In this document: positions 1 through 1,926 of the stretch, piece after piece
Position numbering within the stretch: position 1 is the stretch's first letter
How the letters are laid out: each line of letters opens with the position of its first letter
From: a virus
Lineage: Duplodnaviria > Heunggongvirae > Uroviricota > Caudoviricetes
Length of the DNA stretch: 35,305 bases
Direction: 5' to 3' (one strand)
Virus record (IMG/VR): IMGVR_UViG_3300005323_000036
The notes under the pieces: generated by a model
Database searches by the model: none
Seen by the model: the letters and a program-made list of their open reading frames with translations, nothing else
What the model was told of the DNA's origin: nothing
Program-made: the position numbers and the translations under genes

Positions 1-1926
1 TAAACTTTCAATTGCAGATCTTTCAGTAGTTATTTTCTTTTTTATATCATTTACAGAGAAATTTCCACCATCATAAAACCCAGGAATTCTTCCACCATTA
101 GCAAATAACTTTGATCTTTCCGTTCTAGATAAGATTCTATCGTTTGAAAATCCACGAAGTTTATCTAATACTTTAGAACCACCCATTGCGTTTGCTTGTT
201 GTGGATTTAATACCCATTCGCCATTAGAAATAAGTGCATTAGTTCCATATCCACCAGAAGCAAGACCTTTATATGTAGAGTTTCCAGTTACATTTGACAA
301 GAAGTTATTTCCTAATGCCTGAACAGTATCTTTATCAAGAACATAAGAACCGGGTGTTAAATTTGCAGGTATAGAATCAGATATAGATGTACCTCTACCA
401 ACTATTTTTCCACCTTGAGCAAATGGCATTGGAATTCCACTCGATAATACAGAACCTACAAGATGAGCACCTAATCCAAGGAAACCACCTACACCAGCAC
501 CTTGTAGTGCATATGACATTATATCTTTTTTATATGCACGCAATTTATCCATTATTCCATATTGATGACTTTGTCTAGATGGAGATAGCATTGATAATAA
601 TGAATAATTAGATCCACCTTTAGATGATGGTCTAGACGATGGTAAAAATTTTGATATATTAGATGGTGTATTTTGAATAAATTTCTGCCTTCCAGAAATC
701 ATACCCATCATATTAGAAATATCACCAATAGGAGATTGAATACCTCTGGTTCCAGTAGTTGATATTCTTCCAAGCGAAGGAACTAAACTTGACCAATCTA
801 CGCCACCACGAATACGAGATCCTTGTATATTTTGTCTATATCCTTCAATATTTTGTCCAGTGCTTCTTAAACTTTCTAAAAATTTAAGTTGGTGAGCAAC
901 GCCACTATAAATTACGCCTGTAGAACTACCTAGTTTTTTAAATACCGGATCAAATACAGGCCTCCCTCTAAATTTATTACCACCTGTAAACGATTCCTTT
1001 AAAGCATCTCTCAATTTTGCTGGATTAGAAGTAAGTCCCTTTTGTCTTGAAAAATAACCAGCAGATTTTACAGCATCTTCTCCATATTTTCCAACAAGAT
1101 TCTGTAACGTAACTAAAGATTCTTTTGTGTGTTGTGTTAAAAATGCAGAGCGAATTAAGGATAATTCTTTTTGGTTTCTTATAATTGGAGATTGACCGCC
1201 CTTGACACCAGTAATTCCTTGTAATACTTTTGCCGCTTCAGGATTCACTTGTGCAAATTTCATTAAATCTTCTATCTGCTTTGAAGTAATACCGGCACTT
1301 TGTAGCATTCTCAAATCATTAGAATATGTTCCACCTGATTTTTGAATTAATCTTTTAAGATCTTCAACACTTCCTCCATTGGCAAAACCTTTCTTGTTAA
1401 ACATAGTGATGCTTGATAGTAATCTGTCCATTTTTTTACCTGATAATCCTAAATCTTTTGTTGTAAGTTTCATCTTTCCTGATTTGCCAAATACTATTGG
1501 AAGTTGCTCAAATGAACCACGTGAAAGTGTATCTGAAATACGCATTAATGGAAGTAAGCCTTTTAACTGTTGGATATCTTTTTTGCTGAATTGAGATAAA
1601 TCCGGCATTGATTTACCAGGATGTTGATTAACAATAAATTCTATTAACTTTTTACTTTTAACATCATTAAGAATACCAGACTTTCTAATGAAATCAGAAC
1701 TTATCTTACCGTGTTTATTAGCATTGATATCTTTTGCAATGTCATGAAGTAATATTGCTTTATCTATAATATCTTTATTTAATTTAGTATTGCCAAGTTG
1801 ATTAAAAATCTGATCTGAAATATTTGCAACATTTTTAGTATGTGATTGTTGACTTGGAGCAAGTAATGATGATAACAATTCAAGATCTTTAGAACTATAT
1901 ATACTATTTATCTTTTTATCAGCCAT
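1..1926 (-). CDS. Tape-measure-like large virion protein with N-terminal HD domain (3'-truncated by the window edge)
   Basis: Not in the ORF track. Translated by hand from ATG 1926: open for 642 codons to position 1. HD motifs H29, H61-D62 (LLHDIAK), H72, H102, D132 (RISD). Repeated FAxGG motifs (FAQGGKIVGRGTSISDSIPANLTPGSYVL; LASGG..LISNGEWVL; FANGG) typical of tape-measure proteins. Lies directly after the tail chaperone. Confidence 0.75.
   Translation of the reverse strand, partial: MADKKINSIYSSKDLELLSSLLAPSQQSHTKNVANISDQIFNQLGNTKLNKDIIDKAILLHDIAKDINANKHGKISSDFIRKSGILNDVKSKKLIEFIVNQHPGKSMPDLSQFSKKDIQQLKGLLPLMRISDTLSRGSFEQLPIVFGKSGKMKLTTKDLGLSGKKMDRLLSSITMFNKKGFANGGSVEDLKRLIQKSGGTYSNDLRMLQSAGITSKQIEDLMKFAQVNPEAAKVLQGITGVKGGQSPIIRNQKELSLIRSAFLTQHTKESLVTLQNLVGKYGEDAVKSAGYFSRQKGLTSNPAKLRDALKESFTGGNKFRGRPVFDPVFKKLGSSTGVIYSGVAHQLKFLESLRSTGQNIEGYRQNIQGSRIRGGVDWSSLVPSLGRISTTGTRGIQSPIGDISNMMGMISGRQKFIQNTPSNISKFLPSSRPSSKGGSNYSLLSMLSPSRQSHQYGIMDKLRAYKKDIMSYALQGAGVGGFLGLGAHLVGSVLSSGIPMPFAQGGKIVGRGTSISDSIPANLTPGSYVLDKDTVQALGNNFLSNVTGNSTYKGLASGGYGTNALISNGEWVLNPQQANAMGGSKVLDKLRGFSNDRILSRTERSKLFANGGRIPGFYDGGNFSVNDIKKKITTERSAIESL

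Follow-up and report, generated by a model that had tools for sequence, protein, structure and literature searches.

The left end of the 35,305-nucleotide stretch of viral DNA analyzed here (the window) raises the question of what an HD-type phosphohydrolase domain is doing on a tape-measure protein (TMP), how it came to be there and on what it might act. On the minus strand, an open reading frame starts with an ATG at 1926 and runs past the left edge, with 642 codons inside the window. In the source genome, a complete tailed-virus record of 127,255 bp with direct terminal repeats, the gene extends to a stop at G000:C1:11736 and encodes a product of 1,842 aa (P0002); the window holds its 5' third (aa 1-642, 1..1926). 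Note that the final 100 bases of the record are repeated exactly at about G000:C1:109830.

The 1,842-aa protein is the TMP of this virus. Its gene is very long, lies between tail-tube and tail-tip or fibre genes and encodes a hydrophobic core, with segments near aa 778 and aa 936. The gene order, two tail-tube genes followed by the TMP gene and then by PKD/DUF2341 tail genes, recurs in matching synteny in relatives whose proteins have homologous cores. Residues 485-564 match several PHROG tape-measure families (best E 6e-7). Pfam TMP families yielded no match to the core of the protein, and sequence kinship to known TMPs is found through the [FY]AxGG module only, which occupies aa 502-621 (64..423, minus strand; FAQGG, LASGG, FANGG and FYDGG, delimited with PHROGs and profiles) and is partly duplicated. 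The earlier note had seen FAxGG motifs of tape-measure type and a tape-measure-like protein, and both points are borne out by the PHROG matches, the synteny and six [FY]AxGG copies in P0002, where 0.13 are expected (maximum 2 in 2000 shuffles). The C-terminal half also contains an Asn-Pro repeat tract (aa 1192-1224, G000:C1 about 13590-13690), which is found in P0006 as well; in P0003 and P0004, Thr/Pro- or Asp/Lys-rich tracts take its place.

The surroundings mark a tail module. Two paralogous tail-tube genes with Phage_tube_2 profile matches lie at 3511..5518 (minus strand), and a 166-aa gene at 2623..3123 (minus strand) is, by position alone, a candidate tail-assembly chaperone. Between the latter and the TMP gene, about 700 bp (1927-2622) are devoid of a convincing gene, and the relatives likewise have a gap of 0.3-1 kb before the TMP. 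Upstream of the ATG, at 1938..1978 on the minus strand, we noted by eye, without statistics, a TATA-like TTTATATG (1978-1971) and a GGAG (1941-1938). In one relative (L005:1-4952), TnpB/Cas12f-like genes are inserted in the tail module, which there has three tail-tube paralogues. As the genome also contains PCNA-like and family-B-polymerase-like reading frames, recognized by eye, it looks archaeal, and the virus is probably an archaeal one; its terminase has only distant phage matches (~22%), which point to no particular host. The relative P0014 is encoded on a 136-kb virus contig (L007) inside an NCBI assembly labelled Dehalococcoidales, which, if real, would clash with the archaeal-type genes; this label was considered as a host hint and set aside as most likely an artefact of binning.

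The HD core spans aa 28-134 (1525..1845, minus strand; Pfam and alignments). It scores 39.6 bits against Pfam HD (PF01966; E 7e-10, cutoff 22, aa 28-122), and aa 1-140 score 27.9 against TIGR00277 (HDIG), with a cutoff of 27.6; all eight viral HD members match Pfam HD at E<=0.1. A complete HD metal-binding set had been proposed for this region, and every residue named was found in its place: the putative ligands are H29 (1840-1842), H61-D62 (1741-1746), H72 (1711-1713), H102 (1621-1623) and D132 (1531-1533), all on the minus strand and assigned from alignments. The AlphaFold model of aa 1-186 is helical and of high confidence (pLDDT 91, pTM 0.88), and H29, H61, D62 and D132, the H..HD..D ligands, sit on its helical bundle. 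All six ligands are conserved in each of the six HD-bearing TMPs, and K65 and R129 are likewise invariant across the viral set, so that the two checks suggested earlier, prediction of an HD fold and conservation of the His and Asp residues in homologues, both turned out positive. In the one unsaturated close pair, P0005 and L017, dN is 0.083 against a dS of 0.876 (dN/dS about 0.09), and judged from this pair the HD cassette is under purifying selection. From the pattern of conservation, the viral HD domain probably binds metal and is quite likely to be catalytic.

A search for further HD and tape-measure fusions in related viruses, also proposed in the earlier note, was successful. Among 20 non-redundant TMPs of 1,595-4,862 aa that share a common core, 6 carry the HD domain. 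The fusion to a genuine TMP thereby stands, while the fixed N-terminal position that had been ascribed to it does not, the domain being internal in five of the six carriers. It occupies the first position in P0002 only. In P0003, P0004, P0005 and L017 it begins right after one [FY]AxGG motif and stops at the next, and in P0011 it lies near the N-terminus, behind an ADP-ribosyltransferase (ART) and between degenerate motifs. The functional unit is longer than the extent first given, 1530-1926: a conserved cassette of aa 7-180 (1387..1908, minus strand), in which alignments and model show the HD helical bundle and, after it, a brief beta-hairpin/helix extension similar to what else makes up the Ppx C-terminus, ends exactly at the FANGG motif of aa 181-185 (1372..1386, minus strand). 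As judged from the alignments, the HD domain is thus a cassette of ~175 aa bounded by [FY]AxGG motifs. It is followed by a conserved segment (aa 186-504; 415..1371, minus strand; delimited by sequence clustering) that ends in a Gly-rich hydrophobic stretch and forms the customary N-terminal part of the TMPs of many relatives; ESM-atlas feature searches scored under 0.9 for this segment and were set aside as uninformative.

The motifs are concentrated in the region before the core, where the 20 TMPs contain 71 copies against 1.1 expected from shuffles, as compared to 3, with 1.2 expected, in the part past the core and the module next to it. The boundary test of the cassette is partly circular, because the viral-only profile (A2) was cut at motifs; independent support comes from whole-protein BLAST alignments, which begin at the motif and end there in two of three cases, and from the stand-alone relatives P0009 and P0010, which stop at the right boundary of the cassette. 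P0009 (L002:6001-8333) is devoid of His102 and shares with the product of the next gene a basic Gly/Pro N-terminal peptide ending in GPxGGxYY/F that resembles a packaging tag. Searches of IMG/VR, GTDB genomes and GenBank phages revealed no HD cassette elsewhere, and neither did a profile search among proteins of 78-312 aa; as this latter, word-index search also missed P0010, it is weak evidence of absence.

Whereas P0002 has a single recognized enzyme cassette, its relatives string together a number of unrelated conflict enzymes within a single chain, in variable combinations, as polyvalent proteins do. GNAT cassettes exceed the Pfam cutoff in P0004, P0005, P0006 and P0014 and an ART cassette does so in P0011, while most ART-like cassettes fall below it; the HExxH (putative zincin) and HNHP (JAB-like) cassettes are labelled from their motifs only and are below the cutoff. 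Pfam scans of the TMPs for the polyvalent markers MPTase, ArdC-N, YodL and LPDs gave no matches. The longest TMP of the set (L011:3319-17904, 4,862 aa) comes close to the record length of P23-45. In P0022 (aa 1367-1805 and 2605-2720), an unrelated TMP of 3,094 aa that also contains an ART above the Pfam cutoff, lysozyme-like and peptidase-like segments were seen by eye between [FY]AxGG motifs, so that the cassette design may reach beyond this TMP family.

DNA comparisons of close relatives show that [FY]AxGG motifs are where cassettes enter, drop out or are swapped, and in this sense the motif acts as an exchange joint. Across the motif, L004 and L005 are 99% identical on the right side over 1,356 nt and 92% identical on the left side. 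In L004 and L017, ART and HD (about 1.3 kb) lie between two motif copies, while L005 has a single copy without insert and P0007 likewise is without ART and HD at that motif. Just before the insert L004 has a scaffold gap, but L017 contains the insert without a gap. A second ART-like insert distinguishes L004 from L005 at another motif. We infer recombination at the repeated motif DNA. On the core tree, the HD label needs five changes, four of them forced by well-supported branches. The HD domain of P0002 shares 51-58% identity with copies from TMPs that in their cores reach only 31-35% identity to P0002, and the closest cores (60-66% identical) are without HD; this combination indicates lateral acquisition. 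The HD cassette is dispensable, as 14 of the 20 relatives are without it.

Its patchy distribution, with clustering no stronger than for shuffled labels (the five changes on the tree), and its insertion at repeated DNA motifs would also be expected if the cassettes were selfish or neutral passengers in a protein of flexible length. The dN/dS of about 0.09 speaks against this, as do the nature of the cassettes, which are conflict enzymes, and Pfam scans of the TMPs, in which no intein or homing-nuclease family was found, and we regard a mere passenger role as highly improbable.

The exchange joint may at the same time be a processing site. The profile of the [FY]AxGG modules matches lambda gpH 730-785, Mycofy1 gp16 and the TMP of PDB 8rk3. 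During lambda assembly, gpH is cut at about residue 690-730, at a site and by an agent that are unknown, and the cleaved fragment stays in the virion (PMC12617516). In T5, cleavage of pb2 separates its enzyme domain, and the cleaved fragments stay in the virion as well. A role of [FY]AxGG as a protease site is therefore plausible by analogy; the AlphaFold model of the module is of low confidence (pLDDT 63.5), and for this reason we make no claim for a fold or a self-cleaving protease. In the podoviruses F116 and Dartukuta (L028:8920-11046 and L029:7923-9905), a protein that starts with the [FY]AxGG module is encoded directly before giant methyltransferase-type genes, and this context suggests a link of the module to ejected cargo.

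That gpH is cut during assembly, next to the part homologous to the module (PMC12617516), might equally mean that the producing cell is where the cassettes are excised from the TMP and where they act, late, in assembly, lysis or host shut-off, with no delivery to the next host. The wide variation in cassette number, reflected in TMPs of 1,595-4,862 aa, would fit such late action, and so would the position of the cassettes, found before a weakly hydrophobic stretch in some relatives and after it in others. However, a late enzyme would not need fusion to a TMP, the retention of TMP fragments in lambda and T5 virions points the other way, and the F116 and Dartukuta arrangement hints at ejected cargo; we thus consider action in the producing cell to be quite unlikely. 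A point against delivery is that three to six copies of a folded domain would probably be hard to fit into the tail tube.

With respect to the question of substrate, the cassette most resembles the C-terminal HD domain of Ppx/GppA, and not cyclic-nucleotide phosphodiesterases, Cas3 or dNTPases. When the AlphaFold model was compared with 48,161 chains in VIA-align, C-terminal regions of Ppx/GppA took the first seven ranks (Z 15.5-12.5, rmsd 3.6-5.0, 146-172 residues aligned). The next family follows at Z 10.4, and YqeK, PgpH, HD-GYP and alarmone hydrolases reach Z 7.6-9.6; Ppx/GppA is ahead of rival HD families by 3-6 Z units, with the C-terminal extension covered too. In the structure atlas, TM scores of 0.70-0.75 fall mostly on Ppx-III clusters, and Foldseek alone returned nothing at E<=0.001, though Ppx heads its list. 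Note that the AlphaFold input alignment held two Ppx-III rows, a possible bias in these fold searches. The same two rows biased the profile used for the PDB search (A1), and it was repeated with the viral-only profile A2, which found solved Ppx structures at E 0.07-0.8, weak matches but spanning the whole domain. The single sequence of aa 1-140 gave no match in the PDB, and an exhaustive single-sequence search returned viral relatives plus just two Ppx-GppA_III proteins (E 2e-4 and 6e-4). Identity to cellular relatives is about 30%. Against the Pfam profile Ppx-GppA_III (PF21447) the cassette scores 18.2 bits with E 0.002, below the cutoff of 27.3; from its sequence it is related to this family but no formal member of it. 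The N-terminal ASKHA catalytic domain of Ppx-GppA was not matched anywhere in the 1,842 aa.

One of these two Ppx-GppA_III proteins, among the nearest cellular relatives of the cassette, is P0012, which is stand-alone with all ligands intact and which the viral-only profile matches with 96.4% probability. Its gene follows ppx and two dTMPK-like genes, one of which matches PDB 5h70 at E 5e-44 (L025:132-3847), and the order of ppx and dTMPK-like genes is that of the PPK3 polyphosphate-kinase arrangement (PMC12995831). The HD protein in this operon possibly represents an uncharacterized family of polyphosphate enzymes.

The earlier note had suggested the degradation of nucleotide defence signals or a remodelling of the nucleotide pool, and a co-injected HD enzyme acting on cyclic defence messengers (cOA, c-di-AMP, cGAMP), dNTPs or ssDNA has points in its favor. 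The additional histidines H72 and H102 point to a pair of metals, the fold lists include PgpH, YqeK and HD-GYP, the best PDB match of the viral-only profile is the cGAMP phosphodiesterase V-cGAP3 (E 0.007, over the generic first 45 positions only), and viruses may repurpose folds. By published criteria, the layout H..HD..H..H..D is that of the two-metal type of YqeK and HD oxygenases, an HH dyad marks cyclic-nucleotide and ssDNA phosphodiesterases, and an Arg before the first His marks dNTP and ppGpp phosphatases, while the substrate is not readable from sequence alone (PMC8177086). In the viral copies a single His is found at position 102, after Q, K or N, in place of the HH of the phosphodiesterase motif H..HD..H..HH..D, alignments of the HD copies reveal no GYP loop of the HD-GYP type, and the Arg that in YfbR, SpoT, SAMHD1 and YqeK precedes the first His by about three residues is replaced by Q, D or I. 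Together with the lead of Ppx/GppA in the fold comparison and Cas3-HD matches at E about 0.01 in the first motif only, this renders attack on messengers, dNTPs or ssDNA rather unlikely, if still a viable rival, and the subfamily evidence moves the leading guess to the Ppx/GppA C-terminal HD type.

We know of no Ppx-type HD domain that has been shown to be catalytic, and solved Ppx proteins have HE where the viral copies have HD. In E. coli, a Ppx-type HD domain aids processivity (10.1101/2023.12.22.573107). With this precedent of domain III, the Ppx-III fold and a pI of 9.7-10.2 in the five copies computed would suit a non-catalytic domain whose ligand is polyphosphate or a different polyanion, for instance DNA, and whose task might be sequestration of that ligand or anchoring of the genome on its way in. 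The pI is weak evidence, since basic stretches also occur in the TMP around the domain, and the six putative ligands, some of which solved Ppx proteins have replaced, are invariant across TMP copies that are only 30-35% identical; a purely binding role appears improbable.

The reading we prefer, with a probability of roughly 0.55, is that the TMP is a cargo polyprotein carrying a two-metal phosphoanhydride hydrolase for polyphosphate or pyrophosphate-bearing nucleotides, which would be co-delivered with the genome. The cassettes, set apart from each other by [FY]AxGG, form an array N-terminal to the membrane-spanning TMP core, and the HD cassette would likely become part of the virion together with the TMP, at the head-proximal end, and reach the cytoplasm of the host at about the moment when the DNA enters. 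It may be set free by a cut at or near the motif, a step that we regard as somewhat less likely than not. In the cytoplasm it would hydrolyze phosphoanhydride bonds. If the domain is active, polyphosphate or pyrophosphate-bearing nucleotides (NpnN, alarmones) are our first, still tentative choice of substrate; cyclic oligo- or dinucleotides would come well behind, other substrates slightly behind these, and nucleic acids are improbable. Its role would be in early host takeover or in weakening a response of the host, to stress or for defence, that is based on phosphate. A bolder extension, in which the ancient [FY]AxGG motif is recombination joint and protease site in one, TMPs are programmable polyproteins cut into injected effectors, and an active Ppx-type HD domain attacks host polyphosphate at entry, strikes us as rather unlikely in its entirety.

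Several known systems share parts of this design. In gp96 of the Thermus phage P23-45, too, a long TMP starts with an enzyme that has a cytoplasmic substrate, a virion RNA polymerase, and the protein is present in virions at full length (PMC10770324). There, however, a single large and fixed enzyme serves transcription, while here a small cassette of phosphohydrolase type belongs to a variable, exchanged array delimited by motifs. Polyvalent proteins (PMC5512222) and MuF-fused effectors (PMC9503650) line up conflict enzymes (ART, GNAT, zincin, RadC/JAB) one after another and presumably enter the host along with the genome, but they are head-associated or free giant proteins, in contrast to a TMP carrier with defined motif joints; the word 'tape' does not occur in the main texts of either paper, nor 'HD domain' in that of PMC5512222. 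T5 pb2 and lambda gpH, which stand for TMPs that carry cell-wall hydrolases and are processed at the C-terminus, are comparable through the cleavage of pb2 and the homology of the module to gpH, but their cargo is C-terminal and acts on the envelope, whereas the presumed cytoplasmic enzymes considered here are N-terminal to the core. The Ppx/GppA C-terminal HD domains (PF21447; E. coli, H. pylori, D. radiodurans) and stand-alone Ppx-III proteins provide the best fold over about 170 residues and the sole cellular sequence matches. The viral cassette differs from them in its viral origin and position in a predicted virion protein, in its intact HD dyad and ligands, in a shortened C-terminal part and in being without ASKHA domain. 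YqeK Ap4A hydrolase and the HD oxygenases have the same six-ligand layout (PMC8177086) but lower fold scores (YqeK Z 8.9-9.6, PhnZ 7.7), and the viral domain is without the Arg before the first His.

We found no publications on an HD-TMP fusion or a motif-delimited cassette array, within an incomplete coverage of the literature. New are the Ppx-type assignment with its link to a polyphosphate operon, the junctions at the DNA level and the lateral move of the cassette to the N-terminus. The counter-defence of archaeal viruses is poorly known, and the findings would extend virion-delivered effectors to a variable arsenal of cassettes on the TMPs of viruses that are probably archaeal. The question of gpH cleavage in lambda becomes testable, as the homologous motif adjoins the estimated site (PMC12617516). 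As a Ppx-type HD domain that is small, looks soluble and has its ligands intact, the cassette would provide a handle on the chemistry of such domains, and polyphosphate emerges as a possible battleground between virus and host.
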